DNA of 64,000 nucleotides. It comes from Nitrosopumilaceae archaeon. GTDB taxonomy: Archaea > Thermoproteota > Nitrososphaeria > Nitrososphaerales > Nitrosopumilaceae. A model generated the notes under the pieces. It ran no database searches. It was not told the origin of the DNA and saw only the letters and a list, made by a program, of their open reading frames with translations. Location: assembly GCA_965200155.1 (NCBI GenBank), contig CBDATR010000009.1:64001-128000 (forward strand), in the 5' to 3' direction. Of this stretch, positions 791-51,019 are shown piece after piece. The position numbers and the translations under genes were made by a program. Position 1 is the stretch's first letter; each line of letters begins with the position of its first letter.

Positions 791-904
791 AGCTACCATA
801 CTGTAATCATTCCTCTCATTTTCTGCCATCAAGGACTCGTGGGGTGTCCAAAACGATGCATTTGCAGCTGCCATACTGTAATCATTCCTCTCATTTTCTG
901 TCAT
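791..904. repeat. 39-bp direct repeat (2 mismatches) flanking a unique 36-bp insert
   Basis: AGCT[A/G]CCATACTGTAATCATTCCTCTCATTTTCTG[C/T]CAT occurs at 791-829 and 866-904, with the insert at 830-865. It is visible in the protein as duplicated ENERNDYSM. Confidence 0.9.
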
Positions 905-1006
905 GGTGACCAATGCGTTCTGTGTTATCTCGTAAGATTCATCCTGGACTAGGCTGGCCCTGTTCCCGATGCAGTGTTCCAGCGCGTCTGCCAGTGCACA
1001 CTCAAA

Positions 1007-1098
1007 GTATGAGTTCATCTGTGTCTAAATTTACGCACAACTGATCGCGACAGTTAATGTGATTTGTGCACAAGATTCCGGAAGACGTGAACTCATAC
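1007..1098 (+). mobile_element. MITE (92 bp, subfamily A), TIR GTATGAGTTCA, 8-bp TSD CACTCAAA
   Basis: Terminal inverted repeats are present, with CACTCAAA at 999-1006 and 1099-1106. There are seven further copies in the window. Confidence 0.92.
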
Positions 1099-1132
1099 CA
1101 CTCAAAGGCCTTGTCGTTCAGGTGCTGTCTTG

Positions 1133-1961: not shown

Positions 1962-2093
1962 GTCACAATCGCTCTATTTATGCGGCCGCATCAGGTCAAA
2001 AGTGATTCATACAGAGCCGGGCACGACCACTAGAACGGTTACCTTTTCTCAATCCATGTATCCTTTTTTCAACATGTACCTACTTCTTTACGG

Positions 2094-2192
2094 GTATGAG
2101 TTCACCTGTGTCTAAATTTACGCATAACTGATCGCGACAGTTAAAGAACCGGTTCTTTTGTGCATAAGATTCCGGAAGACGTGAACTCATAC
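2094..2192 (+). mobile_element. MITE (99 bp, subfamily B with internal AAAGAACCGGTTCTTT palindrome), 8-bp TSD CTTTACGG
   Basis: TIRs GTATGAGTTCAC/GTGAACTCATAC, with CTTTACGG at 2086-2093 and 2193-2200. Confidence 0.92.
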
Positions 2193-2230
2193 CTTTACGG
2201 CGCCTTCCAGAGTCAAAGAATGTTTCTGGT

Positions 2231-2764: not shown

Positions 2765-2815
2765 GTTTGGAATGGTGTGGAGAGTGATATTAAATTTATA
2801 AGAGAAAGTGAATTT

Positions 2816-4618: not shown

Positions 4619-4769
4619 TTGTTGTGCATAAACAGAAATTTCTACTAGCGTTTGTTATGGTACAATGGTGCAATGCTGCATGAAAGTGTAGTATGAAGAG
4701 CCTAGCAGGTCTGGCGATGATGGATGAGCATATGTAATTCGATTTCTTTAACAAGTATGGTTTGGGGTT

Positions 4770-6419
4770 ATGGCTATGGCCGTAAATGATATTATGATAC
4801 CGGTTCGGATGTTGACGCAGTATGTTTATTGTAACAGGTTGGGGTATATGGAATGGTTACAGGGTGAGTTTGAGACGTCAACAGACGTGGAACAGGGCAG
4901 ATTCGTGCACCGCAATGTGGATACCATATCCGGTACAAAGAAAATCCAGCAGGATGGGGAGATACACGCCACATCCGTTATGATATCGGATGTGAAACTT
5001 GGGCTGGTAGGAAAGCTGGACTTGCTTGAGATTGAGGGTCGCGCCGCGGTGCCAGTAGAATACAAAAAAGGCAAGGTACCCGATATCCAAGGAAATGTGT
5101 ACGATAGTACACTGGTGCAGGTTTGTGCGCAGGCACTACTCTTACGCGCAAACGGTTACAAGTGCACCGAGGGCGTGGTATATTATGTGGCGTCACGGCG
5201 CCGGGTTCGCGTGATTATAGATGACATACTGATAGCAAAGACTTTGCAGGCCATATGGGACCTAAAGGAGATGGTCAAGAAGAATATCATACCGCCACCT
5301 TTGGTGGATAGCCCAAAATGTCCGCGGTGTTCACTGGTGGGCATATGTCTTCCTGACGAGGTAAATCTGTTGTCAAACCAAAAGATAAAGGTAGACTCGG
5401 TGCGTCGTATGTATCCCATCAGGGCAGATGCAGTTCCAGTACATATACAGGAGCAGGGTGCATCTGTCTCTGTAACAGGAGATACGCTACAGGTGAAATC
5501 TACCGATGGGCAGAAACGGAAAATACGCATAATCGACGTGTTGGACTTGACTGTATATGGTAATGTTCAGATAACCACACAAGCACTACGTCGCTTGCTT
5601 GAGCGTGGCATATCCGTTTGCTATATGACATATGGAGGATGGTTCGTGGGCATGACCAACGCGGGTATGAACAGGAATATCGATTTGAGAATCCATCAGC
5701 ACAGGGTGTATGATGACAAGATTTCATCGCTAGATATATGCAAAAATATTGTTTATGGTAAGATAAGAAACTGCATGACGCTCTTGAGGCGCAACCACAA
5801 GTCTGATGCTACCAGGGTATTGGGAGAGATGTCGCAGATGGCAGATAAATCTCGGGGATGTAAAAAATACGAAACGCTCCTAGGTATAGAAGGAATGGCC
5901 GCCAGACTGTATTTTTCAAATTTTGCCGGTATGCTGAAAGACGATTCGGGGTTTGATTTTAAGCAGAGAAACCGGCGGCCGCCCAAGGATCCCGTTAATG
6001 CCATACTGTCGTTTTTGTATGCGTTGCTGGCCAGGCAAGCGACAGTTACCGTGATGGGGGTGGGGCTGGACCCATATATCGGGTATCTACATACGCCACA
6101 TCATGGCCGTCCATCACTGGCTCTGGATATGATGGAGGAGTTTCGCCCAATCATATGCGATAGTGTGTGTATTAGTATGATAAATAATTCCATGCTTGTC
6201 CCATCGGATTTTACAGATGCGGCCATGGGCGTATCGATGACGCAGAACGGACGGCGACGGGTTCTGGATGCCTTTGAAACACGCATGGACACTACCATAA
6301 AACACGAGATACTGGGTTACTCGGCAAGCTACAGACGCATACTGGAGACGCAGGTAAGGCTGCTGGCAAGGCGTGTTACAGGAGAGATACAAGCATACCC
6401 ACCTTTCAGGGTGAGGTAG
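4770..6419 (+). CDS. cas1: Cas4-Cas1 fusion (type I-G/I-U adaptation)
   Basis: N-terminal Cas4 RecB motif (GKLD..VEYKKG, Q..AQ.LLL) with Fe-S cysteines (YC; KCPRCSLVGIC). C-terminal Cas1 motifs GIEGMAARLYF, RRPPKDPVNAILS and LALDMMEEFRP. Confidence 0.95.
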   Translation: MAMAVNDIMIPVRMLTQYVYCNRLGYMEWLQGEFETSTDVEQGRFVHRNVDTISGTKKIQQDGEIHATSVMISDVKLGLVGKLDLLEIEGRAAVPVEYKKGKVPDIQGNVYDSTLVQVCAQALLLRANGYKCTEGVVYYVASRRRVRVIIDDILIAKTLQAIWDLKEMVKKNIIPPPLVDSPKCPRCSLVGICLPDEVNLLSNQKIKVDSVRRMYPIRADAVPVHIQEQGASVSVTGDTLQVKSTDGQKRKIRIIDVLDLTVYGNVQITTQALRRLLERGISVCYMTYGGWFVGMTNAGMNRNIDLRIHQHRVYDDKISSLDICKNIVYGKIRNCMTLLRRNHKSDATRVLGEMSQMADKSRGCKKYETLLGIEGMAARLYFSNFAGMLKDDSGFDFKQRNRRPPKDPVNAILSFLYALLARQATVTVMGVGLDPYIGYLHTPHHGRPSLALDMMEEFRPIICDSVCISMINNSMLVPSDFTDAAMGVSMTQNGRRRVLDAFETRMDTTIKHEILGYSASYRRILETQVRLLARRVTGEIQAYPPFRVR

Positions 6420-6587
6420 GTTGCGAAGCCTGTATATGCCCTCCACAAACTTGGCGGCGCTACTGTGCCGGAACACCTTTCAGGGTGAGGTAGGTTGCGA
6501 AGCCTGTATATGCGACTCAGGAGATGCCCGGTATCATAATGGTGAGGTATCTTTCAGGGTGAGGTAGGTTGCGAAGCCTGTATATGC
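6403..6587 (+). CRISPR. Non-canonical mini-array: 3 identical 37-bp repeats made of the cas1-stop/cas2-start junction, with 2 unique 37-bp spacers
   Basis: CTTTCAGGGTGAGGTAGGTTGCGAAGCCTGTATATGC occurs at 6403-6439, 6477-6513 and 6551-6587, with unique inserts at 6440-6476 and 6514-6550. The structure is seen directly; the CRISPR origin is inferred. Confidence 0.75.
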
Positions 6588-6844
6588 TATGTTATGATGT
6601 GCGCGATCCAAAAAGACTGAACAAAGTATACAAGATGATGAATGGGTATGGGGATCCGGTGCAGTACTCGGTGTTTTTGTGTGATTTAAGCGACACCGAA
6701 ATGGTATACATGAAGCGAGATTTGACAGAATTGCTGAATTTGAATGAAGACAGGGTAATTATTGTGAATACGGGAAAAGGTGATAAAATACAGACCATGG
6801 GCGAACCGCTAAAACACAGTCGTGAATCGGCAATCATAGTATAG
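6569..6844 (+). CDS. cas2: CRISPR-associated endonuclease Cas2
   Basis: YMLCYDVRDPKRL..V.K..GYG..VQYSVF.C motif, 91 aa, TTG start, located between cas1 and the leader. Confidence 0.93.
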   Translation: MRSLYMLCYDVRDPKRLNKVYKMMNGYGDPVQYSVFLCDLSDTEMVYMKRDLTELLNLNEDRVIIVNTGKGDKIQTMGEPLKHSRESAIIV

Positions 6845-7010
6845 CGAGAGGCCGGGTGCCAGGGTAGTCGTGTAGTGATAATCGCTAAATAACCATATAT
6901 AGTATGACCGTATTGTACGATTATGGCGGAGGCTGAACAAAACAAACGTAAAACATATGTAATTCTTATGAATTGGAAAGTATTGTTATGATGTTGTTAA
7001 CCTGCGCAGT
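6845..7010 (+). promoter_or_regulatory. Putative CRISPR leader
   Basis: Non-coding, AT-rich stretch between cas2 and the first repeat. The degenerate repeats lie at the opposite end of the array. Confidence 0.7.
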
Positions 7011-10000
7011 ATTTCCGCAGCCTAACGGTTGCGGCCTCATTGAAGGGATGGTTATAGCCACGAATGCGGCGGGGACGTCCACGGATTTCCGCAGCCTAAC
7101 GGTTGCGGCCTCATTGAAGGGAGAATCGACACGGCTAACGGTTGAGATACTCTAAGATGCCACGATTTCCGCAGCCTAACGGTTGCGGCCTCATTGAAGG
7201 CAGCGTATACCCGCCCGCGACCGTCTCTCTAATTAGATTTCCGCAGCCTAACGGTTGCGGCCTCATTGAAGGAGACTCCCACGACATATGTCTGTACGAA
7301 CATGCGAAGATTTCCGCAGCCTAACGGTTGCGGCCTCATTGAAGGAATATATAAGATTCAATTGAATGTATTCTGCCTAATAGATTTCCGCAGCCTAACG
7401 GTTGCGGCCTCATTGAAGGAGTCAGCTGTAAGTCCTCTAATGAGCCTGTCATATTATTTCCGCAGCCTAACGGTTGCGGCCTCATTGAAGGGCGGTGATA
7501 ATAAAATAATAGGAGAAAAGGGACAGGATTTCCGCAGCCTAACGGTTGCGGCCTCATTGAAGGCAATTACACGCCTAAATTCATTTCGGACTTCCGTTAA
7601 ATTTCCGCAGCCTAACGGTTGCGGCCTCATTGAAGGCGACATGAACATTCCAAATCGTTTTTTGACGTCGCGTAATTTCCGCAGCCTAACGGTTGCGGCC
7701 TCATTGAAGGTGAGGGTTTGATGGGACAATTAGAACCGGGCACGTATTTCCGCAGCCTAACGGTTGCGGCCTCATTGAAGGAGGCTGTCTGGTGTATTTT
7801 TTGCGTGGTTTTACGCATTTCCGCAGCCTAACGGTTGCGGCCTCATTGAAGGGCCTGCCACCACTGTAATCTCTGCCTCATGATTGTAATTTCCGCAGCC
7901 TAACGGTTGCGGCCTCATTGAAGGCCGACACACGCGTGGACGCGGCGGATGTACCTGCAATTTCCGCAGCCTAACGGTTGCGGCCTCATTGAAGGATTGT
8001 GGCCGGTGTCGATCAAGGTACGCCGGATCCACATTTCCGCAGCCTAACGGTTGCGGCCTCATTGAAGGTACGGTATACGCGTATTTTGTCACCTGATTGA
8101 CATTTGATTTCCGCAGCCTAACGGTTGCGGCCTCATTGAAGGGACGGCATCCAAGAGCAGTGCATGTACGAGCCCGAACACATTTCCGCAGCCTAACGGT
8201 TGCGGCCTCATTGAAGGGACCGTCCCACCCACATTCCGTCCATATATGGGATTGCCATTTCCGCAGCCTAACGGTTGCGGCCTCATTGAAGGACCTGTTA
8301 GAGACGAGCTGGTCCATGAGCTCAATTGCTATTTCCGCAGCCTAACGGTTGCGGCCTCATTGAAGGTGACTTGAGTGTCTCCACCCTCTGCAGATATGCC
8401 TGATTTCCGCAGCCTAACGGTTGCGGCCTCATTGAAGGTGTATCAGTGGACGGCATGATCTATGTAATCAATAAAGATTTCCGCAGCCTAACGGTTGCGG
8501 CCTCATTGAAGGTAGAGGCGGCGTTCATTTGTTTGATTCGTCGACAGGTATTTCCGCAGCCTAACGGTTGCGGCCTCATTGAAGGGATGATGACTCGGAA
8601 GAATTAACAGTCCCGGGATACTTATTTCCGCAGCCTAACGGTTGCGGCCTCATTGAAGGTGATGCCTGGTATCCATGCGCGTACGACTTTGCCAGATTTC
8701 CGCAGCCTAACGGTTGCGGCCTCATTGAAGGGGCCCAGACTCATGGATTTTGCAGAATTCACGGCATTTCCGCAGCCTAACGGTTGCGGCCTCATTGAAG
8801 GTATTCAGTGCCCACATCCCGATATTCATTCAGCGGTGATTTCCGCAGCCTAACGGTTGCGGCCTCATTGAAGGCCGCCCTCCGCATTGACGCCACTCGG
8901 TGCCGGTGGGGATTTCCGCAGCCTAACGGTTGCGGCCTCATTGAAGGGGCGATATGCGACAAAAGAAACAACGACAATAGCAGATTTCCGCAGCCTAACG
9001 GTTGCGGCCTCATTGAAGGACATGTTGCATGTTCTATAATGTGCTTAAGTGCCATAATTTCCGCAGCCTAACGGTTGCGGCCTCATTGAAGGTGCCAAAA
9101 GGCATGCCAACGTGTGCTTTGTGTGACAATATTTCCGCAGCCTAACGGTTGCGGCCTCATTGAAGGAACGAGAGGGCGGAATTCCGAGTTGCGTCTTATT
9201 AAGATTTCCGCAGCCTAACGGTTGCGGCCTCATTGAAGGGCGTCTTGGATTTTCACCGCTCCTTATACCGACTAAATTTCCGCAGCCTAACGGTTGCGGC
9301 CTCATTGAAGGCAGCATCCCACTCCAACATAACCTGACCACTCTGTGATATTTCCGCAGCCTAACGGTTGCGGCCTCATTGAAGGATTGATCTCTGATTG
9401 ATTCGCACCCTTGTCGATCAGTATTTCCGCAGCCTAACGGTTGCGGCCTCATTGAAGGCTGAAAATCGGATCTTGACTTTGCCAACGCCATATGATTTCC
9501 GCAGCCTAACGGTTGCGGCCTCATTGAAGGAGTCGTAAATCCTTTAATTCCCGGATCCGTCCTCCATATTTCCGCAGCCTAACGGTTGCGGCCTCATTGA
9601 AGGATAATGCTGGAATGTAACAAGTCGTTGGGCGTTGAAATTTCCGCAGCCTAACGGTTGCGGCCTCATTGAAGGCCCGGTATCAGGATCCTCCATATAG
9701 GGCCCAATTTCATTTCCGCAGCCTAACGGTTGCGGCCTCATTGAAGGTGACTGCTTTTATGCTGGTTTCGCCGAGCATGACTGATTTCCGCAGCCTAACG
9801 GTTGCGGCCTCATTGAAGGGCGGCCGCCTCCGCGAATCCACCTGCCGCCGCGGGCCCATTTCCGCAGCCTAACGGTTGCGGCCTCATTGAAGGGCATTAG
9901 ATACGAGTGCGAGAACAATGGCAGGCACCACATTTCCGCAGCCTAACGGTTGCGGCCTCATTGAAGGGCACCCGATCTGATATATTCACACATAATGCAA

Positions 10001-13000
10001 TTATATTTCCGCAGCCTAACGGTTGCGGCCTCATTGAAGGTACGGAATGGATTTCCAACTGGCGCTCCAGCGCTACCAATTTCCGCAGCCTAACGGTTGC
10101 GGCCTCATTGAAGGAACCGTGGAATTATTCATTACATTCGCACTTTGGTATTTCCGCAGCCTAACGGTTGCGGCCTCATTGAAGGAACTACTTTGTGTAC
10201 GCCGCATATGTCATGCCATGTGATTTCCGCAGCCTAACGGTTGCGGCCTCATTGAAGGGTTATTTTGGCGATCCCACGTGATTCTGGCCCATATATTTCC
10301 GCAGCCTAACGGTTGCGGCCTCATTGAAGGTAGAAGGATCTGTCCAAGAAACGCCATATGGATATAATTTCCGCAGCCTAACGGTTGCGGCCTCATTGAA
10401 GGTAAAAGTGGAGTCTGGCAAGATCCCACTTTTTTCATATTTCCGCAGCCTAACGGTTGCGGCCTCATTGAAGGCTTACCCTCGCCGTGAACAAAGTCAC
10501 ATTCTATGCAAATTTCCGCAGCCTAACGGTTGCGGCCTCATTGAAGGTAACACATATATGGGGGTATTATGTTAAACATGTTACAATTTCCGCAGCCTAA
10601 CGGTTGCGGCCTCATTGAAGGAGGATGTGGCGACCTATATGTCGCTCACGGGACCTGATTTCCGCAGCCTAACGGTTGCGGCCTCATTGAAGGACGCAAA
10701 ATCCTTGACATGCACCGGCCATTATTCAAATTTCCGCAGCCTAACGGTTGCGGCCTCATTGAAGGACGTGAACAGTGTAATTTTGTAGAGCTTTTGAGCC
10801 AGATTTCCGCAGCCTAACGGTTGCGGCCTCATTGAAGGCGATCATATGACTCACTCCACCCCACCAAAAAATTAAGATTTCCGCAGCCTAACGGTTGCGG
10901 CCTCATTGAAGGAGGAGGACTGAGGGTAAGGACTGGCAGTCGCAATATAATTTCCGCAGCCTAACGGTTGCGGCCTCATTGAAGGAGATTCTCGCGATAT
11001 GCGATTTGTGATGCATGTACTATTTCCGCAGCCTAACGGTTGCGGCCTCATTGAAGGTAACCCTAATACTCCTCATGGTATTCGTCCTGCTACTACTATA
11101 TTTCCGCAGCCTAACGGTTGCGGCCTCATTGAAGGAAAGCTGCGGAATCCAATAGACCTTGTGCCACTGCCTGATTTCCGCAGCCTAACGGTTGCGGCCT
11201 CATTGAAGGCAAACCCTCGATTATCAATATCCTTTAAAAGAGGTGCATTTCCGCAGCCTAACGGTTGCGGCCTCATTGAAGGTGTGATCGATTTAAAATT
11301 TGCGACGGGTTTAGATATATTTCCGCAGCCTAACGGTTGCGGCCTCATTGAAGGCATGTATCTTTATTGCACGGAATCATTGTGTCGACTATTTCCGCAG
11401 CCTAACGGTTGCGGCCTCATTGAAGGGACTCATCACAAACATTAATCTATGACCCTGTGCATTGCGGCCCCGCACGTCAAACCATTTCCGCAGCCTAACG
11501 GTTGCGGCCTCATTGAAGGGACTCATCACAAACATTAATGGCGGAGGATGTCGGGATTTCCGCAGCCTAACGGTTGCGGCCTCATTGAAGGCGGTGGTTG
11601 TACTAGTTAGTAATGAATCTGCCTTGGATTTCCGCAGCCTAACGGTTGCGGCCTCATTGAAGGCTTACTGAGTAGACTCGATCTGCGATGTGGACGTAAC
11701 GATTTCCGCAGCCTAACGGTTGCGGCCTCATTGAAGGGAATTCGTAAATAATCGCGGCGTTAATAGCACAATAATTTCCGCAGCCTAACGGTTGCGGCCT
11801 CATTGAAGGACCCGAATTGCAAATCTTAATATGGCCGCCGAATGGAAATTTCCGCAGCCTAACGGTTGCGGCCTCATTGAAGGGTTAAACCAAATTCGTT
11901 TGTGCCGTCTCCGAATTCTCCATTTCCGCAGCCTAACGGTTGCGGCCTCATTGAAGGAACGAACGCTCCAAAAATTCCAATTCCGGCGTTATGTATTTCC
12001 GCAGCCTAACGGTTGCGGCCTCATTGAAGGGACCATGTTAATATTACCTGTCCACTCTGTATGACACATTTCCGCAGCCTAACGGTTGCGGCCTCATTGA
12101 AGGACTGAGTTCATGTGCTTTGATCTCATGTTTGTATTATTTCCGCAGCCTAACGGTTGCGGCCTCATTGAAGGTGTCGATACTAATATTGCCTGGGATG
12201 CTTACGAAATTATTTCCGCAGCCTAACGGTTGCGGCCTCATTGAAGGTTGTAATATTGATCGAGAGCCCGCGATTCATTATATCATTTCCGCAGCCTAAC
12301 GGTTGCGGCCTCATTGAAGGTGGCATCAGTTGCATCTTATTCACAGAGGTTGGGAGAATTTCCGCAGCCTAACGGTTGCGGCCTCATTGAAGGACATATC
12401 CATTCCATGGTCTTTGCTCATCATATTGGTATTTCCGCAGCCTAACGGTTGCGGCCTCATTGAAGGAGTCAATTAAAAGGAGATATTGAGCCGGCGTGGA
12501 ATTCATTTCCGCAGCCTAACGGTTGCGGCCTCATTGAAGGGGGGAATTTTCCATGTAAGTTATGGGTGCTAATAGACATTTCCGCAGCCTAACGGTTGCG
12601 GCCTCATTGAAGGTATACACTCACTGCATATAGAGTGGCTCCTGAGGAGATTTCCGCAGCCTAACGGTTGCGGCCTCATTGAAGGTAATGACCGGTTTAC
12701 TTATCATATTTTCACCATACTTATTTCCGCAGCCTAACGGTTGCGGCCTCATTGAAGGCACACGCGCGACTCTATAGGCATGACCCAGGCTTGAATTTCC
12801 GCAGCCTAACGGTTGCGGCCTCATTGAAGGTTTTGTCCATTTTGCTTGTTGCATACTCTAGTATACGATTTCCGCAGCCTAACGGTTGCGGCCTCATTGA
12901 AGGGACATTCTAAAAGTGACCGTACCGGGTCCACTTTTATTTCCGCAGCCTAACGGTTGCGGCCTCATTGAAGGGACAATGGCGTGACAGGCAGCGATCT

Positions 13001-16000
13001 CCGAGGCAAGATTTCCGCAGCCTAACGGTTGCGGCCTCATTGAAGGTGTTAGTAGTGTTTTAGCAAATCCATGGCTATTAAGATTTCCGCAGCCTAACGG
13101 TTGCGGCCTCATTGAAGGTAGCATAATCGTTTGTCATAAGCCATTTTTTTACGCGGATTTCCGCAGCCTAACGGTTGCGGCCTCATTGAAGGTGGACTAA
13201 TGACACACGGGCGTCCGTGGCCTGAAATATTTCCGCAGCCTAACGGTTGCGGCCTCATTGAAGGCTCCCCAATGCCGCCATTAATTTTGTCTCGCGGCGG
13301 AATTTCCGCAGCCTAACGGTTGCGGCCTCATTGAAGGACGGCAACAGGCCTTAATGACGGCACGACATATTGGATTTCCGCAGCCTAACGGTTGCGGCCT
13401 CATTGAAGGGGTGCATATTTTGTGGCCGACAGTCTGTATGGCGCTTATTTCCGCAGCCTAACGGTTGCGGCCTCATTGAAGGTGACTATTACTGCTTTTT
13501 TTGGGCTTCGCTTTTTGATTTCCGCAGCCTAACGGTTGCGGCCTCATTGAAGGTCCTGATAAAAATCGATCCTATATACTTTCCATGTGCGATTTCCGCA
13601 GCCTAACGGTTGCGGCCTCATTGAAGGACGAATGGAGGGCCTGAAAGGTAAACTGACTGGCGGGATTTCCGCAGCCTAACGGTTGCGGCCTCATTGAAGG
13701 GTCGAGTTCATGGAGATTACATCAAGCCGGGATATAATTTCCGCAGCCTAACGGTTGCGGCCTCATTGAAGGTACTATACACTCGAATCCTCGCACTCCT
13801 CATTCTACTATTTCCGCAGCCTAACGGTTGCGGCCTCATTGAAGGACTTAGTAAAAGTGACCGCCCAAGGTCCACTTTTTAATTTCCGCAGCCTAACGGT
13901 TGCGGCCTCATTGAAGGTGTGGTAAACCAAATTGGCGTGGGCGACGGCACGGATATTTCCGCAGCCTAACGGTTGCGGCCTCATTGAAGGCCCGCCCTGC
14001 ACCCCTTGCCACCATACCGCATACAAATTTCCGCAGCCTAACGGTTGCGGCCTCATTGAAGGGTTCGATGTTAGGACTGAGTCCACCGCAGGATATGGGA
14101 TTTCCGCAGCCTAACGGTTGCGGCCTCATTGAAGGACATTGTGGTTGGCAGGTCTAGTCGGCGCGGGAATGGCATTTCCGCAGCCTAACGGTTGCGGCCT
14201 CATTGAAGGTGAGATAGCAGTAGTAGGATCTTTAAGGATTTCTTTATTTCCGCAGCCTAACGGTTGCGGCCTCATTGAAGGAGGATGAGGCAAAAGCAGC
14301 AAGACGCCGCGATTATGTATTTCCGCAGCCTAACGGTTGCGGCCTCATTGAAGGTTCGAAGAGATGGATCTTACCAGAAAAAAACAATGGGCATTTCCGC
14401 AGCCTAACGGTTGCGGCCTCATTGAAGGTTGTGACCTGTCCATTACCGCTCTCTGCAATAGCAATTTCCGCAGCCTAACGGTTGCGGCCTCATTGAAGGG
14501 TGCCTATGTTGTTGCCGATGTATTTTTTTTGGCTCGAGATTTCCGCAGCCTAACGGTTGCGGCCTCATTGAAGGCGCCAGGTTCATAAAGCTCGCATTGA
14601 CCCGTGCCATATTTCCGCAGCCTAACGGTTGCGGCCTCATTGAAGGGATAATGTAACAGGTGAATTTTTGAGCGGGACAGATTATTTCCGCAGCCTAACG
14701 GTTGCGGCCTCATTGAAGGCAAATTCCATGTTGTATATTTCCCTCATGTCTTTTTTATTTCCGCAGCCTAACGGTTGCGGCCTCATTGAAGGGAACAAGC
14801 GGTCAAGTCACAATAAGTTGGAATGCCGATTTCCGCAGCCTAACGGTTGCGGCCTCATTGAAGGAATCGCCCATTGCTCATGAATGTACTTAGTTAATTC
14901 CTATTTCCGCAGCCTAACGGTTGCGGCCTCATTGAAGGTTCAATGTCCATACGGCATATGTCGGCGATTGATTTATTTCCGCAGCCTAACGGTTGCGGCC
15001 TCATTGAAGGAATCCGTAATGCTCATACGAGCCGTCAGTGTCGCTCATATTTCCGCAGCCTAACGGTTGCGGCCTCATTGAAGGTATAAAAACAACCATG
15101 CATACTGTAAAGCATGTAACAATTTCCGCAGCCTAACGGTTGCGGCCTCATTGAAGGGCCTCAACCACGTGCATCTCTTTCTTGGCGGCCTCAAATTTCC
15201 GCAGCCTAACGGTTGCGGCCTCATTGAAGGTGTTCAAGCCAAGCTTATGGTTGAATATTCAACGCCTTATTTCCGCAGCCTAACGGTTGCGGCCTCATTG
15301 AAGGTGCTTGTTGCATAGTATACATACGGCATTACGGTATAATTTCCGCAGCCTAACGGTTGCGGCCTCATTGAAGGGATCAAAGCCCTAAACCACAGGC
15401 CGCCGCGAGCATAATATTTCCGCAGCCTAACGGTTGCGGCCTCATTGAAGGTTGGCAAAATCATTGTATTATTCGTACCACCACCTATGATTTCCGCAGC
15501 CTAACGGTTGCGGCCTCATTGAAGGGTGTAAGGGCGCGCAATGCAACTGGTTGGGGTGCATAATTTCCGCAGCCTAACGGTTGCGGCCTCATTGAAGGGC
15601 GTGCGCCAGGGCTCGCGAATCGCATGGATCAATATTTCCGCAGCCTAACGGTTGCGGCCTCATTGAAGGCCTCGATATTGTTGGCCGTGTCTATAAGAGT
15701 ATTAAATTTCCGCAGCCTAACGGTTGCGGCCTCATTGAAGGTACTCAACCCAAAAGAAGTCCTCGGGTATCTGGTTCATATTTCCGCAGCCTAACGGTTG
15801 CGGCCTCATTGAAGGCGACGTTCCCTTGTATAAGACACATTTTGTTATACATATTTCCGCAGCCTAACGGTTGCGGCCTCATTGAAGGACCAAAAGTCGC
15901 TAATTACAAAAAATACGCATGGTGTATTTCCGCAGCCTAACGGTTGCGGCCTCATTGAAGGGATGGTATAGTCACGATTAATTACCTGTCCCTTTTCATT

Positions 16001-19000
16001 TCCGCAGCCTAACGGTTGCGGCCTCATTGAAGGTTAGTCGCTGTATATCTCGATATAATTTACCTAATGGGGATTTCCGCAGCCTAACGGTTGCGGCCTC
16101 ATTGAAGGCAGTTAGGAGCCATGCGGTATATTTGTGGTACAATAATTTCCGCAGCCTAACGGTTGCGGCCTCATTGAAGGAATTTGCTGGGCGTGCCTGC
16201 TCTTGCGACTCTATCTAATTTCCGCAGCCTAACGGTTGCGGCCTCATTGAAGGAGGACGCAGGCAGGGCGATATATGATGACAGCATATAATTTCCGCAG
16301 CCTAACGGTTGCGGCCTCATTGAAGGGTTGAGTGGTTTGATAATTTAGGATTGCATGGTGTATATTTCCGCAGCCTAACGGTTGCGGCCTCATTGAAGGG
16401 TGCGATGTATCTGGTTTGTTTTGGAGCGCTGTTATAAATTTCCGCAGCCTAACGGTTGCGGCCTCATTGAAGGCACATATCTGTAACCACATTGCTCGCA
16501 CTCAAAAGCAAATTTCCGCAGCCTAACGGTTGCGGCCTCATTGAAGGGCCGATTCATATTCCGTAAGAAGGTATAGCAGTGAAACATTTCCGCAGCCTAA
16601 CGGTTGCGGCCTCATTGAAGGATTACCCGCGGGAACAAAAACCAATGTGGCAATTAATTTCCGCAGCCTAACGGTTGCGGCCTCATTGAAGGTATTCCCC
16701 AAGGTGTCAATCGACGTAAAGAAAGTAGAATTTCCGCAGCCTAACGGTTGCGGCCTCATTGAAGGATGAATTACAGTTGGATCTTAATGAAACTGAACGT
16801 GAATTTCCGCAGCCTAACGGTTGCGGCCTCATTGAAGGATATTGTAATTAAGTATACATCTATATATGCCAGGCAATTTCCGCAGCCTAACGGTTGCGGC
16901 CTCATTGAAGGGCATCGGCCCAGGCACCACAGTCACATCTCTTTTTGATTTCCGCAGCCTAACGGTTGCGGCCTCATTGAAGGGTCTTTGTGGCGCGGCT
17001 CAAAACTAGTGATGTGTCCTATTTCCGCAGCCTAACGGTTGCGGCCTCATTGAAGGGGAACCAAAAGTCACGACGATATGTCGCACTTAGTATAATTTCC
17101 GCAGCCTAACGGTTGCGGCCTCATTGAAGGTATTTGCCGTGGTCACTGGCGGCAACATACTTACCCGATTTCCGCAGCCTAACGGTTGCGGCCTCATTGA
17201 AGGGCGGCGCGCCTGGCAATACAATCGGGGCCGCGGGCCTTGATTTCCGCAGCCTAACGGTTGCGGCCTCATTGAAGGGTGGAGCTGTTGGGGCTGCTAA
17301 CGGCGCCACAGGTGATTTCCGCAGCCTAACGGTTGCGGCCTCATTGAAGGCACATGGCGGCGGATCAATTGAGCAAATATATTCCAATTTCCGCAGCCTA
17401 ACGGTTGCGGCCTCATTGAAGGCAACCACCTGGTCGTCAAATATCACGGCCGCTGGCGATTTCCGCAGCCTAACGGTTGCGGCCTCATTGAAGGATTGAT
17501 CGCATGAATGAAGTGGCCGCTTATTGGCAAAATTTCCGCAGCCTAACGGTTGCGGCCTCATTGAAGGGATCTCGTGTTGTTTGTCTATTACCTCTGCCGA
17601 TACAAATTTCCGCAGCCTAACGGTTGCGGCCTCATTGAAGGTACGCGATTTGTTGCGTGGTTTTTTGACCAACACCCTATTTCCGCAGCCTAACGGTTGC
17701 GGCCTCATTGAAGGGACGTGGCCTCGGAAAAAAATGGCGTATGACAAAAGGCATTTCCGCAGCCTAACGGTTGCGGCCTCATTGAAGGTTTCCAGTATGT
17801 AATTCCACCGGGTGCGTTCTCGTAATTATTTCCGCAGCCTAACGGTTGCGGCCTCATTGAAGGTACTGTCCAACATCCACCACCGCCAATACTTCATAAT
17901 TTCCGCAGCCTAACGGTTGCGGCCTCATTGAAGGTTATCATCATGAGCATAATAGACGCGGCCAGTGTATTATTTCCGCAGCCTAACGGTTGCGGCCTCA
18001 TTGAAGGGTCTTTCCTTGCCATTGAATGGGATCTTTACATATACATTTCCGCAGCCTAACGGTTGCGGCCTCATTGAAGGGCCTCTATGAGTGCTTCTTT
18101 AAGGACTTTGTTAGTATAATTTCCGCAGCCTAACGGTTGCGGCCTCATTGAAGGTACCAAGTTGGGATGCTGCTTCGCGACTGCCTGATACAATTTCCGC
18201 AGCCTAACGGTTGCGGCCTCATTGAAGGTGGGTTATACCTACACCGCTCACATGCCTGCTCTATTATTTCCGCAGCCTAACGGTTGCGGCCTCATTGAAG
18301 GAGTAAGGCAGGGGGCGTGTGGCAAGGGGGGGTAATAGATTTCCGCAGCCTAACGGTTGCGGCCTCATTGAAGGTCTGGAGCACACAGTGCACTCAACCA
18401 AATGGCAAGATATTTCCGCAGCCTAACGGTTGCGGCCTCATTGAAGGTCTCAACAGCCGACGACGATCGCGAGGTATACGAGATTTCCGCAGCCTAACGG
18501 TTGCGGCCTCATTGAAGGTCAACCATTTCGGCCAATAAAATGTTCGATTTTTCAATTTCCGCAGCCTAACGGTTGCGGCCTCATTGAAGGGTAATGGTGT
18601 TGTTACCATTTCACCGGTATTTGGGTCATTTCCGCAGCCTAACGGTTGCGGCCTCATTGAAGGAATGTACCTTTGATTACGATACATTGCCCTATTTGTA
18701 TTTCCGCAGCCTAACGGTTGCGGCCTCATTGAAGGAATGTACCTTTGATTACGATACATTGCCCTATTTGTATTTCCGCAGCCTAACGGTTGCGGCCTCA
18801 TTGAAGGTAACGGTCACGCACACATTCGCGGCGGGGGAGGCCAATTTCCGCAGCCTAACGGTTGCGGCCTCATTGAAGGATCCCCATTATTGCTATGTTG
18901 TATTTGACTCGTATTATTTCCGCAGCCTAACGGTTGCGGCCTCATTGAAGGTTGTGATGAGGATATATTTCATGACACGATCCCGCCGATTTCCGCAGCC

Positions 19001-28000: not shown

Positions 28001-28087
28001 CGGCCTCATTGAAGAATACCATTTCCACTTTGCATTTCGTGATATTACGATATTTCCGCAGCTTAATTGCTGCGGCCTCATTGAAGG
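7011..28087 (+). CRISPR. Large type I-G CRISPR array, repeat ATTTCCGCAGCCTAACGGTTGCGGCCTCATTGAAGG (36 bp), spacers mostly ~33-39 bp, roughly 290-300 units
   Basis: Perfect repeats recur every ~71-72 bp, each with hairpin CCGCAGCC/GGTTGCGG and a 3' ATTGAAGG handle. The last two repeats are degenerate. The count is estimated as span divided by unit length, not enumerated. Confidence 0.99.
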
Positions 28088-28102
28088 CTTGAGCAGCTCA
28101 AG

Positions 28103-33466: not shown

Positions 33467-34716
33467 TATTCGTCGCTAGACATATCTTTGGAAACCTTAC
33501 GACTGCGCCGGATCAGTTCCAGTAGTTTTGGTGCCGGAACCAGCGCGAGTTTGTCGTTATCTGTTTCCCATCCTAGGCCCGATTCGGCAGCGCGGGTTAC
33601 GGCCATATCCAATATCTCTGTAGTACTGGTTTGGGTTAGATTCACCGGAATGTTTGAGCCGTCTCTCTTTAATAGCTCAATAGTTGGCTCGCCGGTAGGA
33701 ATTAAAAGACAACGTGAGCGCAGATCATAATCATTCGCGTATTGATATGCTATAGCTGCAATACCCAATGCGGCAATGGCCGTGCGTGCATTTATGGATG
33801 CCTCAGCACTGACATCTTTGAACTGCAGACGGCGCAGAGAAACAAAAGATAACAAAATTGTCTGAAGAGCTCCGGATATAGTAACGCCGCCAGATGTAGA
33901 ATCTATTTGAGGTGGTATATTACCATGGTTTATCTTGGAAGGTTGACCGGGCTTACCATCAGAGCCACGGGCTGCATATACCGGTTTTTTATGTTTATCT
34001 TTCTCTGCCTCATCTTCTTCGGTAGTCCATACCTCATCTTTGTTGTTATGATTGTATATACGATCCTCATCAGCAAGTCTTTCTATTTGTAGGGGATCAA
34101 TACGACTAGATACTTTGACACCCACACTGGCATCAAAACCCATAATTTCGGATACATAAGATCGTTGGAACTTGGATCCCAAACCGCCTTTTGGGCCAGT
34201 GGAATCCCACATCCCAAACAGAATAGATGTGGGCGAATATTTGTACAAGGCTATTGCATTACGGGGAGTAGTATTAGTAATAGCCCGACCCACATCTGAC
34301 AGGCGAAATAATGTGCCATCCAAGAGACTGTCCCGGAATATAGCATCGGCAATCCGGTGCGGAGTTTCCAGTACGGTCAGCTTTTCATAGTCGATGTCTT
34401 CGTGTTGGGTAAAATCAACATATGGAACAGGAAACTTCAGGGCACCAGATTTCCACCCATCCAACAAGGCTAGTTCTGCTCGGTTGGCTTCCGCAGCTAC
34501 TGAATTGAGCAGAACTGCTGTTTTGCCCGAACGATCTTCTATAGCATATTTTGTCTTTTCGTTGGGTCCAACCAAGTATGTAGGTGGGAATACCTTATCG
34601 TCGGTACCACCTGCTGGTTGCAGACTTGTACTAGAACGCAAAGCCACAGCACCGCCAGAGACTGCCTCTCGCAGTTGTTCGTATGTAATATCCACATTCA
34701 TCACACCATTAGGCAC
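33466..34716 (-). CDS. csb1: Csb1 (Cas7 backbone), type I-G
   Basis: LQPAGG..DKVFPPTY, SV..EANR.E, PHRIADA, PTSILFGMWDS, HGNIPP and LRSRCLL motifs. Confidence 0.93.
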   Translation of the reverse strand: MPNGVMNVDITYEQLREAVSGGAVALRSSTSLQPAGGTDDKVFPPTYLVGPNEKTKYAIEDRSGKTAVLLNSVAAEANRAELALLDGWKSGALKFPVPYVDFTQHEDIDYEKLTVLETPHRIADAIFRDSLLDGTLFRLSDVGRAITNTTPRNAIALYKYSPTSILFGMWDSTGPKGGLGSKFQRSYVSEIMGFDASVGVKVSSRIDPLQIERLADEDRIYNHNNKDEVWTTEEDEAEKDKHKKPVYAARGSDGKPGQPSKINHGNIPPQIDSTSGGVTISGALQTILLSFVSLRRLQFKDVSAEASINARTAIAALGIAAIAYQYANDYDLRSRCLLIPTGEPTIELLKRDGSNIPVNLTQTSTTEILDMAVTRAAESGLGWETDNDKLALVPAPKLLELIRRSRKVSKDMSSDE

Positions 34717-35360: not shown

Positions 35361-35363
35361 ATA

Positions 35364-36637: not shown

Positions 36638-36752
36638 TAATGACAAGGATGGAAATCCCCGAGCCACCACAGATGTGATAAGAAATGAGCACCGTTTTCT
36701 TTAGAGCGATTCTTTGAGCTGGTTAATCCCGGCTGTAATTTTAACAATGGGA

Positions 36753-45976: not shown

Positions 45977-46040
45977 ACAGGCACCCCCCGATCTGTTTAT
46001 AATTATATCAAATGCCCATAGGAAGGGCACCAAAAAAAAG

Positions 46041-49400: not shown

Positions 49401-50825
49401 ATCTATTCTATTGGTAAAGGCTATCACTTTTTTCAGCAATCGCGGCTTGTTCTCATCATCATCAGGATAATTCAGGCCGTGCCAGACCGCCGACAACAGT
49501 GTCCGCTCATCCAGCGGTACTGTTACATCATCAGAGCCGGTTGTATCCACTTGTGGAACCACTGCTATCTTTACGCGAAAATCCGCCAGTATTCCCCGAC
49601 TCACGGCATCTGTAAAGCCTAGATGATAAAACTGGGGCCCAAACTTTGACTCATCATCCATGGAATACACCATACTGTCCGTTTTGACCTTGACTGTATC
49701 GCTGTACATACTGGGGGTAGCCGTCATATAGAGCCGCTTTCGGCCGGAAATGTTCCTGTCCTCGTGTATCATTGTAAAGGATGACTTGTCCTCCACGCCG
49801 GTGGTGCGGTGCGCCTCATCGGCCAAAATGATATCAAACTTTCGCTTCCCCATGGCGTCTTTCACCACATCCAATGAGTGGTACGTGGAGAATACCACCG
49901 TCATGGCCTGCCTTGGCCGCCTTTTCAGGGACTCTTGCAGTATTGAATAATCGGTAGTAACCTCTGACTCCAGTTCTGTAATGGATGAATCCTCACTTAG
50001 GGACTGATCCGAGCATACGGCGATATAGTTGTGCTGCATATCGGCATTATCTGACCATGCACGCATGCTCTGCTGCACCAGTGATATGGACGGGACCGCA
50101 TACAGGATTAGGCTTCCGGGACCGGCGTATCTCTCCGCTATACGCAATGCCGTAATGGTCTTTCCCGTACCGCACGCCATGATTAACTTGCCCCGATCAT
50201 TTTTCTTGAACCCCTCAAGGACACCACTTATCGCGTCCTGCTGGTGCGGCCACAACTCCTTGGGCTCTTTTCTTTTTATCTCCGGGTAAGCGCTCCAGTC
50301 TATACCGGAGTAGCGGAACTTGTCCGTATCCAGTACGGAGCACCCGCTATATTTTATCAGATTCTCCGTGTCGCCAGTCAGAGGGTCGCCCGTGTACACC
50401 AGAATAGTATTAGTTATTTTCAGGGAGGCGGCCATGGCAAGAAACTCCTCCACCGATTTTATGTCCAGCGTTGACATAGTCTCATAGCACCTGCACAGAA
50501 TGGCGCATAACTGCCCGTCGTGCTGCCGGGCTATCATGTCTATTTTAGCATCATTACCGTCCCGGCCTGGCCACTCACTCCATGACCATACATTCTTGAA
50601 CCGGTTATGATACATGGAATCAGTAGCCAGAAAGTCCCGGCTTAATTTCACCATTATCTTGCCAAGCTGCTCAACGTCGCCGGATTCGGCCCTGACATAC
50701 TCCAGTACATCATCGAATGTATTCAACGGAAATGATGAATTTACCTCATTAAATAAAGTGTGGCTGTACCACATAACAGGATACAATGACCCGGGATGAT
50801 TCCGCGCAGTCGTGAAATCTGCCAC
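46449..50825 (-). CDS. Type ISP (LlaBIII/LlaGI-like) restriction-modification-like protein: intact helicase, degenerate nuclease and methyltransferase motifs
   Basis: Helicase motifs MACGTGKT, DEAHRTTG, MTATP, SEGVDVPALD and QSVGRVMRK are present. The C-terminal target-recognition region has YRPFFK, DIFHYVYGLLH, LPRIP and EWAVDQY. The start codon is uncertain. Confidence 0.85.
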   Translation of the reverse strand: MADFTTARNHPGSLYPVMWYSHTLFNEVNSSFPLNTFDDVLEYVRAESGDVEQLGKIMVKLSRDFLATDSMYHNRFKNVWSWSEWPGRDGNDAKIDMIARQHDGQLCAILCRCYETMSTLDIKSVEEFLAMAASLKITNTILVYTGDPLTGDTENLIKYSGCSVLDTDKFRYSGIDWSAYPEIKRKEPKELWPHQQDAISGVLEGFKKNDRGKLIMACGTGKTITALRIAERYAGPGSLILYAVPSISLVQQSMRAWSDNADMQHNYIAVCSDQSLSEDSSITELESEVTTDYSILQESLKRRPRQAMTVVFSTYHSLDVVKDAMGKRKFDIILADEAHRTTGVEDKSSFTMIHEDRNISGRKRLYMTATPSMYSDTVKVKTDSMVYSMDDESKFGPQFYHLGFTDAVSRGILADFRVKIAVVPQVDTTGSDDVTVPLDERTLLSAVWHGLNYPDDDENKPRLLKKVIAFTNRIDRSMMFAGAMSDHEGRDRSMARIVEQYESMAKLSTGNSVQVSHVDGKTGAMKRRDRLQWLDDNDRDDTCRIISNARCLSEGVDVPALDGVIFLNPRKSWVDVIQSVGRVMRKSPGKQYGYVILPVALPAGVKFHEALNDNKTFKVVWQVLNALRSHDESLAHEVMLNSSNGNTSSASRISTSILGVEDSGMVGGMFTGIKSKLVEKVGDINDQVLSAAAIRMETNLRDRMTHDEHVKSEMERFRGEVEDLVSYPVTQDAAVRAVSQYAALSPVLDSLFSGYVSPDNPLMREFARMMVVLGLGGNFSGKASRETKPTGSARQSYIQKMCGNFLGETCGIVNVPVPVIEFIINSVNHILKRQFEVALNHPYVKVLEPFAVTGSFMARLIESRYMNYGATNMYGHNLYANQSDLLAYCVSRANIETVYQNRNGGVYVPFGGMGYADTLAMDSPIPPRYRQPASSIATLSPYEKIESLAPPDQLVIMGSLFHSGTGHSGKKSEAAYIRALRWASDSIEYTGIIAVVTDASFIDAGVAQKLLHKKFTNVWCVKIPGDMFITILVKNYDKATRAVRYKEMGMDEFKETKSVDKIQRWKIVKQDKSDREFESYMPMSKKRTRAVGNSVFRLHSLGLYAQRDLWLYNSSKSELVINMASYISYCINPLLPGVSRYGSRPPYVLDRLDQSYIDPELDRSLIRRALYRPFFKRYVYFDTDIFINKPHEIPSLFPRGDDLDRTPLGQLRCNIFGSGRENLVIMVTQKTRLSVLVTDTTPDSNVLSNVHCFPYYTDGAGTENILDSTLARYRGHYNDDTITKLDIFHYVYGLLHHEGYRKRFKDSLLSNLPRIPMAPNFDMIAQYGKRLVDLHLNYETGPRYSLEWVGPFDSFTEMSLSGSYWSRKSPQDRLMINGNVVVKGIPEITYSIGGRTPLEWAVDQYRVKVNKKALVIDDPCTRMTQDDVIALVERMVYVGVESGKIIKEISMLPYKARR

Positions 50826-50910
50826 CCATAATCGTTTGAAGACACATTACCACTATCCCCCATAAGGCAGCATGGATATCTCTTTTATTATTCTGTCCGA
50901 CTCCACCATC

Positions 50911-51019
50911 CTCTCTATCAGCGCAATGACGTCTTTCCGTTTCATGTCAACCCCGTAATGGCGATAGAAGTGCCCACCTGATCTCTCTATCAGCGCAATG
51001 ACGTCTTTCCGTTTCATGT
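50911..51019. repeat. Perfect 37-bp direct repeat flanking a unique 35-bp insert
   Basis: CTCTCTATCAGCGCAATGACGTCTTTCCGTTTCATGT occurs at 50911-50947 and 50983-51019. The intact paralog has a single copy and no insert at ~46525-46560. Confidence 0.93.

Follow-up and report, generated by a model that had tools for sequence, protein, structure and literature searches.

We found that the genome assembly hosting the window (the whole 64,000-nucleotide stretch that was analysed) carries 65 different insert sequences, each a piece of 34-39 bp of unrelated DNA enclosed by a target duplication of 36-37 bp. Judging from the sequence, these loci are very probably scars left where the resident type I-G Cas4/Cas1 fusion, together with Cas2, integrated spacers off target in full-site reactions. 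Such genome-wide integration had been suggested in a sequence-only reading of the window, and it is now supported by the length peaks of repeats and inserts, the low scar count of a relative, the exact distant copies of many inserts and a target motif that resembles the CRISPR repeat. The excess of scars may stem from an integrase that errs more often, from weak purifying selection, or from both.

The type I-G system and the scars of the window

The window contains an adaptation module, a long array and several interference genes:

4770..6419, + strand: cas4g/cas1g fusion gene (NF049935, 710.7 bits), the sole Cas1 in the assembly
6569..6844, + strand: cas2 (PF09827, 67.7 bits), the sole Cas2 in the assembly
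6845..7010, + strand: leader of the main array, the 3' part of which recurs elsewhere
7011..28087, + strand: main type I-G CRISPR array, with 289 repeats of 36 nt and 288 spacers of 34-57 nt (mode 37)
28103..34716, - strand: interference genes Cas3-extension, Cas3g, Csb2 (Cas5/6) and Csb1 (Cas7g)

The product of the cas4/1 fusion, presumed to be the integrase, retains all columns that are invariant across 10 homologues, and the reading frames of cas4/1 and cas2 are both open. Two degraded leader-repeat remnants in other parts of the genome also contain the 3' part of the leader. Within the main array, periods of 71, 72, 73, 74 and 75 bp occur 16, 85, 101, 63 and 15 times, respectively. By profile search (TIGR04113), Csx17/Cas8g was not found in this assembly, nor in three relatives that all possess Cas4/1 (G005, G006 and G008), and this absence may be either a trait of the lineage or a limit of the model. 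We considered the loss of Csx17 as the cause of the scars and rejected it, because the gene is likewise not found in these three relatives, whose Cas4/1 is intact.

Four loci with the geometry of a direct duplication around an insert had been noticed in the window. All of them are present, with periods (75, 71, 74 and 72 bp) that equal the size of the array unit (71-75 bp):

791-829 / 866-904: scar 1, copies of 39 nt, 95% identical, with an insert at 830-865 and a period of 75
1224-1260 / 1295-1331: scar 2, copies of 37 nt, 97% identical, with an insert at 1261-1294 and a period of 71
6400-6439 / 6474-6513 / 6548-6587: scar 3, three repeats and two inserts, with periods of 74 and 74
50911-50947 / 50983-51019: scar 4, copies of 37 nt, 100% identical, with an insert at 50948-50982 and a period of 72

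The sequence-only reading had assigned three of these loci to dead restriction-modification genes, which proved to be only partly correct. Scar 1 does lie in such a fragment, a truncated HaeIII-like restriction endonuclease ORF (563-1018, minus strand; PF09556 fragment), to which it adds 75 bp in frame. Its insert matches C10:478564-478599 with 100% identity over 36-37 nt, and the flanks are unrelated. Scar 2 is hosted instead in a 100-aa ORF that has no family match and adjoins a D12 methyltransferase fragment; its insert has no second match anywhere in the assembly. The context of scar 4, upstream of a 1458-aa helicase/restriction-like ORF, is a fragment paralogous to that neighbouring gene (window 50985-51600 and window 46527-47160 are 81% identical), and no source of its insert was found in the assembly.

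The locus whose two neighbours remain intact is scar 3, a mini-array placed exactly at the junction between cas4/1 and cas2. It was thought to hold one insert at 6403-6587, while it actually holds two and spans 6400-6587. The duplicated 36-37-mer includes the cas4/1 stop (TAG, 6417-6419) and the cas2 TTG start, and the distance from stop to start, 1 nt before the formation of the scar, is now 149 nt. The first insert corresponds to C10:291117-291150 (100%, 37 nt after extension) and the second to C24:421310-421346 (97.3%, 38 nt).

Census of the scars and possible causes of their excess

We scanned the whole 2.38-Mb assembly, which is 87.6% complete, for interspaced, non-tandem direct-repeat pairs outside the main array, at all periods between 10 and 400. 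Out of 108 pairs of 35-40 nt, 64 have a period of 70-79, and the other 10-bp bins contain 0-6 pairs each, a pattern far above chance. These 64 pairs are distributed over periods of 71 (4 pairs), 72 (29), 73 (17), 74 (8) and 75 bp (6). As anticipated from the four loci of the window, lengths peak genome-wide, at 36-37 nt for the repeat and at 35-38 nt for the insert. The 81 listed loci were reduced to 65 independent inserts by removing 11 junk loci and 3 native 66-bp units and by merging paralogous copies. The ruler is not strict, since some duplications measure 38-40 nt (for example, scar 1), and most duplication copies are still 100% identical. Several sites were struck repeatedly, the resulting mini-arrays reaching 4 repeats, and one mini-array family is carried on a multicopy element. 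Furthermore, the 8.6 kb that adjoin the array on its leader side contain five inserts, compared to 0.25 expected (Poisson, 7e-6; scan statistic, 10/2000).

The excess of scars held when relatives were analyzed. G005, which has its own I-G system with an array of around 120 repeats, contains 1-2 candidate scars (one clean and one doubtful) in the 2.0 of 2.21 Mb scanned, compared to about 65 in the present assembly, and no scar was found in the 0.8 of 2.74 Mb of G006 that was scanned. The peak that relatives display at periods of 70-79 is made of 25-residue protein repeats, so that the period alone is not diagnostic there.

Scars are scarce in long ORFs. An ancestral ORF of at least 200 aa spans 16 of 70 loci, compared to 59.5% of genome positions covered by such ORFs. 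Dispersed repeats, which occupy 24.8% of the genome, host 27 of the 65 inserts (P-value = 0.002). We also considered whether insertions had been selected for preserving the reading frame, as 33 out of 65 are multiples of three compared to 102 out of 288 array units (P-value = 0.024). We do not claim such a selection, because long ORFs (8 out of 16) and short ones (25 out of 49) do not differ in this share.

The genome itself departs from that of G005: dispersed repeats are more abundant (24.8% and 19,096 HSPs, compared to 11.5% and 1,118 HSPs) and the coverage by ORFs of at least 200 aa is lower (59.5% and 72.9%, respectively), at similar G+C. In addition, the window was recovered from sponge metagenomes. 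These features would fit an ordinary integrase whose approximately 65 scars accumulated under weak purifying selection in a bottlenecked, host-associated and decaying genome, an explanation to which we grant slightly less than an even chance. It would agree also with the retention of all invariant columns in Cas4/1 and with the avoidance of long ORFs. The sequence-only reading had proposed an integrase that is hyperactive or relaxed in its specificity. Such an integrase is one possible cause, but the invariant columns are intact and the genome is unusually repeat-laden and gene-poor, which makes drift an equally good account of why so many scars were retained. What speaks against drift is that most duplications and most pairs of insert and source are still 100% identical, which indicates that many events are recent, and that the five inserts beside the leader and the repeatedly struck sites suggest a high rate of integration. 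Moreover, the separation of the cas4/1 stop from the cas2 start could alter the dosage of Cas1 and Cas2.

It is conceivable, though we hold it to be unlikely, that off-target integration in this genome is still going on and reinforces itself as a mutator, instead of having left only a passive residue. If so, the two spacers at the cas4/1-cas2 junction would have uncoupled the two genes and may have shifted the Cas1:Cas2 dosage and lowered fidelity. The mini-arrays would be newborn CRISPR arrays in the wild, one family of which, on a multicopy element, gains spacers at one end, and the self-derived half of the inserts would represent an unselected natural record of what the type I-G adaptation complex captures.

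Origin of the inserts and features of the target sites

A source elsewhere in the same assembly was identified for 32 of the 65 inserts, with exact matches (100% identity) in 23 cases. One additional insert overlaps array spacer 58 by 26-28 nt, and the other 32 have no match in the assembly or among the array spacers. These figures do not agree with the idea that orphan inserts are mainly records of infections. None of the 288 array spacers matches the chromosome, which differs significantly from the inserts (P-value = 1e-27, Fisher test). In 25 cases the insert has one or two sources, and there the similarity stops at the borders of the insert (30-42 nt), with unrelated sequence on both sides. 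The sources are concentrated on contig C10, and the cumulative G-C skew, which we tried in relation to this concentration, revealed no clear origin or terminus. TTN flanks 7-8 of the 25 sources on either side, compared to 12.6% by chance, which is a weak PAM signal. Searches for protospacers of array spacers found none: the 26-mer common to array spacer 58 and one scar is absent from viral and metagenome contig collections, and the portion of the array between 7011 and 15000 has no match in a phage collection. We take the lack of self-derived spacers in the array to mean that autoimmunity purges them there; at scars they would survive because they are not part of an expressed array.

To describe the target sites, we pooled 96 ends of 48 target families. 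T occurs at position +3 in 48 of the 96 ends (P-value = 7e-7), G or T at +4 in 70 and C at +5 in 42; at the inner positions, G or C is found at +11 in 71 ends and C at +12 in 43. The CRISPR repeat has TTC at +3 to +5 on both ends. A target motif, as envisaged when the four loci were first noticed, can therefore be derived, and it mirrors the ends of the CRISPR repeat. A weight matrix trained on the target sites alone reached a leave-one-out AUC of 0.82 and, against random 36-mers, scored the CRISPR repeat at the 99.98th percentile. The repeats of relatives rank at the 99.88th and 99.93rd percentiles, and a hot spot with nine events at the 99.8th, while one hot spot with four events scores only at the 54th percentile.

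Single-copy (empty) targets are detectable in paralogues, with 10, 19 and 65 copies for events 4, 5 and 14, respectively (10 families examined). Orthologous empty sites could not be aligned because relatives are too diverged: the DNA of window 50300-51600 returned only matches of 59-80 nt to a repeated element when compared to 21 genomes, and the protein of event 80, which bears an in-frame scar at residues 52-87, aligned to relatives only over 78-264, missing the scar.

According to the established chemistry of Cas1-Cas2, a complex loaded with a prespacer of approximately 36 bp would attack two phosphodiesters located 36-37 bp apart, on opposite strands, at an ordinary chromosomal site. The two ends of this site would resemble those of the CRISPR repeat (NNT-T/G-C, followed by G/C-C at +11/+12). 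Gap repair would then duplicate the 36-37-bp target on each side of the insert, and the insertions that persist would be the tolerated ones, in repeated elements, pseudogenes, gene ends and defence genes.

A process unrelated to CRISPR, for example a new kind of mobile element or an insertion templated by repair, would have to produce 36-bp staggered cuts and fill them with short ectopic DNA. We consider it very improbable, even if the weakness of the PAM signal is in its favour, because the lengths of both duplication and insert match the array unit, the CRISPR repeat is predicted from the target motif, one of the inserts shares sequence with an array spacer, and scars cluster beside the leader. 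In addition, no two inserts are alike, and none is a multicopy element or bears terminal inverted repeats, which bears out the initial view that the loci are not MITE scars. Insertion of a MITE or of another transposon was rejected also because there are 65 different inserts of 34-39 nt and the 36-37-bp duplication matches the insert in length.

An artefact of assembly or binning is less probable still. The assembly is made of 51 contigs and includes small low-G+C contigs that look foreign, and the cross-check was done on three loci only (window 500-7000). Within this interval, two studies provide runs whose contigs, built independently, also carry scars 1, 2 and 3; one of the two studies may have supplied the assembly itself. 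Contigs of runs X1, X5 and X6 span 1072-2120, including scar 2, with 0-1 differences, and contigs of runs X5 and X6 cover 6484-6580 in scar 3. One contig of run X3 leaves the window between 796 and 1098, with 128 letters replacing 303, so that scar 1 is unconfirmed in that sample. Among the joints listed, none skips 71-75 or 148 bp in the way that an empty allele would, but contigs drop rare variants, so that this is no evidence against such alleles. Moreover, no known artefact yields duplications of 36-37 bp together with exact distant copies of 36 bp and a junction motif. Finally, it is hardly credible that the loci are true CRISPR arrays of small size or repeat units that serve a regulatory function of their own, because, although a few loci have 3-4 repeats and one family lies on a multicopy element, each locus has its own "repeat", which is ordinary coding or repeated-element sequence and is single in paralogues, many of the loci lie inside ORFs and no common hairpin or processing signal was seen when reading the duplicated sequences.

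Comparison with known cases of off-target integration

Non-canonical spacer integration in E. coli was reportedly described by Nivala, Shipman and Church (Nat Microbiol, 2018), a study that we know through the papers citing it. In the accessible parts of three reports, E. coli overproducing Cas1-Cas2 acquires a spacer-sized insert with a repeat-length duplication at a non-CRISPR site, and these "neo-CRISPR" sites can be struck again and start new arrays (10.1101/148544, PMC7054753, PMC9456107). As far as the available text of one of them goes, natural cases amount to "circumstantial evidence" in two other species only (10.1101/148544). The E. coli case, as presented in these excerpts, concerns a type I-E system under artificial overexpression, with events that are rare in culture, whereas here the assembled genome of a wild archaeon with a type I-G system has around 65 scars, and half of the inserts are self-derived. 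The mechanism is known from overexpression in E. coli, and here it would have acted in nature on an exceptional scale. We found no natural genome-wide case of such scars in the literature, subscription papers and supplements being outside our reach.

A further similarity concerns Pyrococcus furiosus. In the sections of the paper that were accessible, off-target sites of its Cas1-Cas2 in vitro are paired one repeat length apart on opposite strands, and share border and internal bases with the repeat, thus revealing what the integrase reads (PMC6698737). Both the paired spacing of one repeat length and the repeat-like bases at non-CRISPR sites recur in our data. The substrates described there are plasmids in vitro and the repeat is 30 bp, whereas we observe chromosomal scars with a ruler of 36-37 bp, a symmetric T-(T/G)-C at +3 to +5 and G/C-C at +11/+12. 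In Geobacter sulfurreducens, the available portion of the report on the type I-U/I-G Cas4/1-Cas2 gives 36 bp as the predominant spacer length and a TTN PAM for 50% of unique naive spacers, with integration scored in the array (PMC6547450). That Cas4/1 belongs to the same family of fused Cas4/Cas1 (NF049935) as the one in the window, and its 50% of TTN compares to 7-8 of the 25 identified sources here.

A natural set of about 65 events makes the mutational cost of keeping an adaptation module testable. The same is true for the way in which a type I-G integrase reads its target, owing to the 36-37-bp ruler and the symmetric end motif, and for the birth of new CRISPR arrays at such sites and their spread on mobile elements. 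A simple scan for repeat-length duplications around spacer-length inserts can be applied to all genomes.

Self-targeting spacers inside CRISPR arrays likewise derive from the chromosome of the host. Here, the 32 self-derived inserts are all located outside the array, and hence should not make crRNA. The genome therefore allows the separation of self and non-self to be examined before selection, with 32 of 65 self-derived sequences outside the array and 0 of 288 inside it.

Repeat-insert-repeat loci in the window and in the genome

The window corresponds to C9:64001-128000 in the 2.38-Mb, 51-contig assembly of the archaeon (G000). We searched all contigs for direct repeats without gaps, testing each period between 10 and 400, and counted interspaced, non-tandem pairs with at least 90% identity lying outside the CRISPR array. 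Of 108 pairs of 35-40 nt, 64 had a period of 70-79 (71:4, 72:29, 73:17, 74:8, 75:6), and the remaining 10-bp period bins held 0-6 pairs each. The sequence-only reading had attributed four such loci in the window to genome-wide off-target spacer integration by Cas4/1-Cas2 of the resident type I-G system, and had staked this on a genome-wide length peak near 36-37 nt. The repeat length of the scanned pairs does peak at 36-37 nt, and the core of that reading is supported. From 81 candidate loci we removed 11 (tandem protein repeats, low-complexity DNA, small low-G+C contigs), kept apart 3 native 66-bp units that belong to a multicopy element and merged loci whose common insert derives from paralogous copying. 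This curation left 65 independent inserts, with periods of 69-78.

All four loci of the window were recovered with the geometry first described. At 6403-6587 the duplication stands, and the supposed single insert is in fact two inserts between three copies.

Scars and type I-G locus in the window
791-829 and 866-904, scar 1, copies of 39 nt with two mismatches, period 75
1224-1260 and 1295-1331, scar 2, copies of 37 nt with one mismatch, period 71
6400, 6474 and 6548, starts of the three copies of scar 3, periods 74 and 74 (two inserts)
50911-50947 and 50983-51019, scar 4, identical copies of 37 nt, period 72
4770-6419, cas4g/cas1g fusion
6569-6844, cas2
166 bp directly before the array, leader
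7011-28087, CRISPR array, 289 repeats of 36 nt
strand opposite to cas4/1-cas2-array, Cas3-extension, Cas3g, Csb2 and Csb1

Three scars had been placed in dead R-M genes and the fourth described as leaving both flanking genes intact. Scar 1 does lie within a HaeIII-like fragment, scar 2 only adjoins a D12 methylase fragment, and scar 4 is within a fragment paralogous to the adjacent helicase/restriction-like gene. The event with intact neighbours is scar 3, the most informative of the four, whose duplicated 36-37-mer holds the cas4/1 stop and the cas2 start, formerly 1 nt apart. Both genes are still open, their spacing is now 149 nt with two spacers in between, and the first two repeat copies contain decoy cas2 starts. 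The integrase struck its own operon. The window also contains perfect short tandem repeats at 39704-39775 and 53772-53848 (36 nt x2 each), 55093-55152 (15 nt x4) and 57056-57126 (21 nt x3.4); the 21-nt unit occurs elsewhere in the genome as well.

The type I-G system and the target motif

The type I-G locus looks complete, with array periods (71:16, 72:85, 73:101, 74:63, 75:15) in the range of those of the scars, and it provides the one Cas1 and the one Cas2 of the assembly. Cas4/1 retains all columns invariant among 10 homologues, including the Cys cluster and the Cas1 acidic and histidine positions. Csx17/Cas8g was not found in G000 or in three genomes of the same genus (G005, G006, G008), all with Cas4/1, and is present in two others (G009, G001). 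Csb1 has 416 aa, of which the Cas7g model matches residues 26-197 only. An IS5-like fragment lies at 35428-35958, within the stretch 34716-36750. Remnants of other type I-G loci occur on contigs C43 (128228-128263, minus) and C22 (~30402 and ~19218). One is a leader-like stretch that has one repeat with 3 mismatches and lacks spacers; in another, a second copy of the leader goes with a repeat that has lost an internal part; a third is a shortened repeat adjoining a palindromic multicopy element of small size.

To derive a target motif, as the sequence-only reading had proposed, we pooled both ends of the duplicated target from 48 independent target families (96 ends). The result is a symmetric end motif with T at +3 in 48 of 96 ends (P = 7e-7), G/T at +4 in 70, C at +5 in 42, G/C at +11 in 71 and C at +12 in 43, and with T avoided at -3. 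It mirrors the CRISPR repeat, which reads TTC at +3 to +5 from each end, as do the repeats of relatives. A weight matrix trained on the scars alone separated them from random sites with a leave-one-out AUC of 0.82. Against random 36-mers, this matrix places the G000 repeat at the 99.98th percentile and the repeats of G005 and G006 at the 99.88th and 99.93rd, respectively; the repeat next to the leader, taken in its context, outscores all 100,000 random sites. The site hit most often, with 9 loci in a single multicopy element, is at the 99.8th percentile, and a second hot spot (4 events) only at the 54th.

The inserts also cluster near the array. Five inserts fall within 8.6 kb on its leader side (C9:62508-70587, that is, window 791-6587 and one locus 1.5 kb before the window) compared with 0.25 expected (Poisson 7e-6), and a cluster as dense arose in 10 of 2000 random placements. 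The integrase appears to sample DNA around its proper target.

Multicopy elements abound in the genome and provide unoccupied sites within it. For events 4, 5 and 14, the target is present once in at least 10, at least 19 and at least 65 other copies, respectively, and forms a repeat-insert-repeat unit in one copy. Some sites were hit repeatedly, with two inserts at scar 3 and at C24:237593, three at C24:500844, and two staggered, overlapping events at C24:352098 and C24:352190. One multicopy element family (for example C10:6462, C24:500844, C13:47756, C24:454178) carries an old scar unit, spread by the element's own copying and measuring 66 bp in many copies through a 6-nt deletion in the insert. 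Some of these copies gained one or two more inserts, always at the same end, up to four repeats.

Origin of the inserts

Out of the 65 inserts, 32 match elsewhere in the assembly (at least 30 nt, at least 94% identity), 28 of them with one or two sources and 4 with a multicopy one; 23 agree with their source at 100% identity. The insert of scar 1 corresponds to C10:478564-478599, and those of scar 3 to C10:291117-291150 and C24:421310-421346. In 25 cases with one or two sources, only the insert is matched (30-42 nt, mostly 36-38); the similarity ends at or a few bases from the duplication, and the flanks are unrelated. The donors were therefore copied, not moved. Another 32 inserts have no match in the same assembly or among the array spacers. 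The last one (C25:4797-4831) overlaps array spacer 58 (window 11210-11246) by 26-28 nt on opposite strands, which indicates that the same foreign element was sampled twice, once correctly and once off-target. The common 26-mer is absent from viral and metagenome collections.

Matches outside the array exist for just 2 of the 288 array spacers, namely the C25 scar and a 17-nt chance match; therefore no array spacer matches the chromosome. Self-derived sequences thus account for 32 of 65 scar inserts and 0 of 288 array spacers (P = 1e-27, Fisher test). This corrects the proposal that the inserts record infections, as they are largely self. We infer that the adaptation complex captures much self DNA, and that self spacers, neutral elsewhere, are lost from the expressed array through autoimmunity. 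The PAM search that had been suggested returned a weak signal, with TTN flanking 7-8 of 25 sources compared with 12.6% by chance. Of these 25 sources, which belong to self-derived inserts having no more than two each, contig C10, 24% of the genome, holds 15 (binomial P = 1.6e-4), spread over 450 kb (28 kb to 479 kb). G-C skew revealed no origin or terminus. C10 could be a region where prespacers are captured preferentially, or a replicon with higher copy number.

The mechanism of off-target integration is already known. Papers citing Nivala et al. 2018 (10.1101/148544, PMC7054753, PMC9456107) describe it in E. coli overproducing Cas1-Cas2, where a repeat length is duplicated and new arrays can arise, and 10.1101/148544 calls the evidence in two other species 'circumstantial'. 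PMC6698737 reports in vitro plasmid integration by P. furiosus Cas1-Cas2 at repeat-like sites one repeat length apart. The spacers that Geobacter Cas4/1 acquires measure 36 bp, and 50% of the unique naive events show a TTN PAM (PMC6547450), above the share seen here. A comparable natural case was not found in searches of the openly accessible literature. The novelty lies in the scale reached in nature, the occurrence in an archaeal type I-G system, the self-derived origin of half the inserts and the target motif.

Retention of scars, relatives and sequencing runs

Before insertion, a frame of at least 200 aa spanned the site at 16 of 70 loci, compared with 59.5% of genome positions. Dispersed repeats of at least 300 bp make up about a quarter (24.8%) of G000, in families of 50-66 copies, and host 27 of the 65 inserts (P = 0.002). 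Among the 38 inserts in unique DNA, just 8 are in frames of at least 200 aa, and these have a mild effect or are in defence genes. One splits an Mrr-type restriction endonuclease by a frameshift, another precedes the start of serine hydroxymethyltransferase, a third falls behind an amidohydrolase domain, and a fourth affects a metallo-beta-lactamase-fold gene at its 3' end, leaving the frame whole because the target was duplicated; others add 24 residues in frame. Around 27 small contigs with 36-43% G+C and microsatellites look foreign, possibly host DNA.

A Cas4/1 relative with 25-66% identity occurs in 6 of 9 same-genus genomes (66% in G006 and G001, 59% in G005 and G008). We scanned the first 2.0 of 2.21 Mb of G005, whose own array has about 120 repeats of 36 nt, in the same way. 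This yielded 8 pairs of 35-40 nt at period 70-79 outside the array. Six are 75-bp units in repetitive sequence, five of which, on reading, resemble 25-residue protein repeats; one is doubtful and one is a clean scar-like locus (C1:586038-586147, a duplication of 36 nt with 100% identity and period 74). Of the 2.74 Mb of G006, the first 0.8 Mb gave 12 pairs, every one a coding-type repeat. Such scars are therefore rarer, by a factor of about 30 or more, in a relative whose type I-G system looks active. G000 is more decayed than G005, with dispersed repeats covering 24.8% and 11.5% of bases and frames of at least 200 aa covering 59.5% and 72.9% of positions, respectively. A raised integrase error rate and better scar retention are therefore inseparable in these data; either fits the excess, and the hyperactivity originally proposed is one of two options.

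The stretch 500-7000 is present (at least 92% of sampled words) in seven sequencing runs from two studies, one labelled sponge metagenome; either of the two may be the assembly's own source. Independently built contigs of runs X1, X5 and X6 span scar 2 (1072-2120, 0-1 differences), X5 contigs 500-859 and 837-1036 cover scar 1, and X5 and X6 contigs carry the second insert of scar 3 (6484-6580). In run X3, one contig departs from the window between 796 and 1098, and scar 1 has no confirmation there. For the small-subunit rRNA, the archaeal model gives 1437.6 bits and the bacterial model 1093; with the sponge-labelled runs, this identifies the organism as an archaeon found in sponge samples. A short element at ~1007-1100 and 2093-2196 reaches summed contig depths of ~23,000-84,000, compared with 25-75 around it, and is a point where many contigs meet or break off. 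In these samples it is a repeat of very high copy number.
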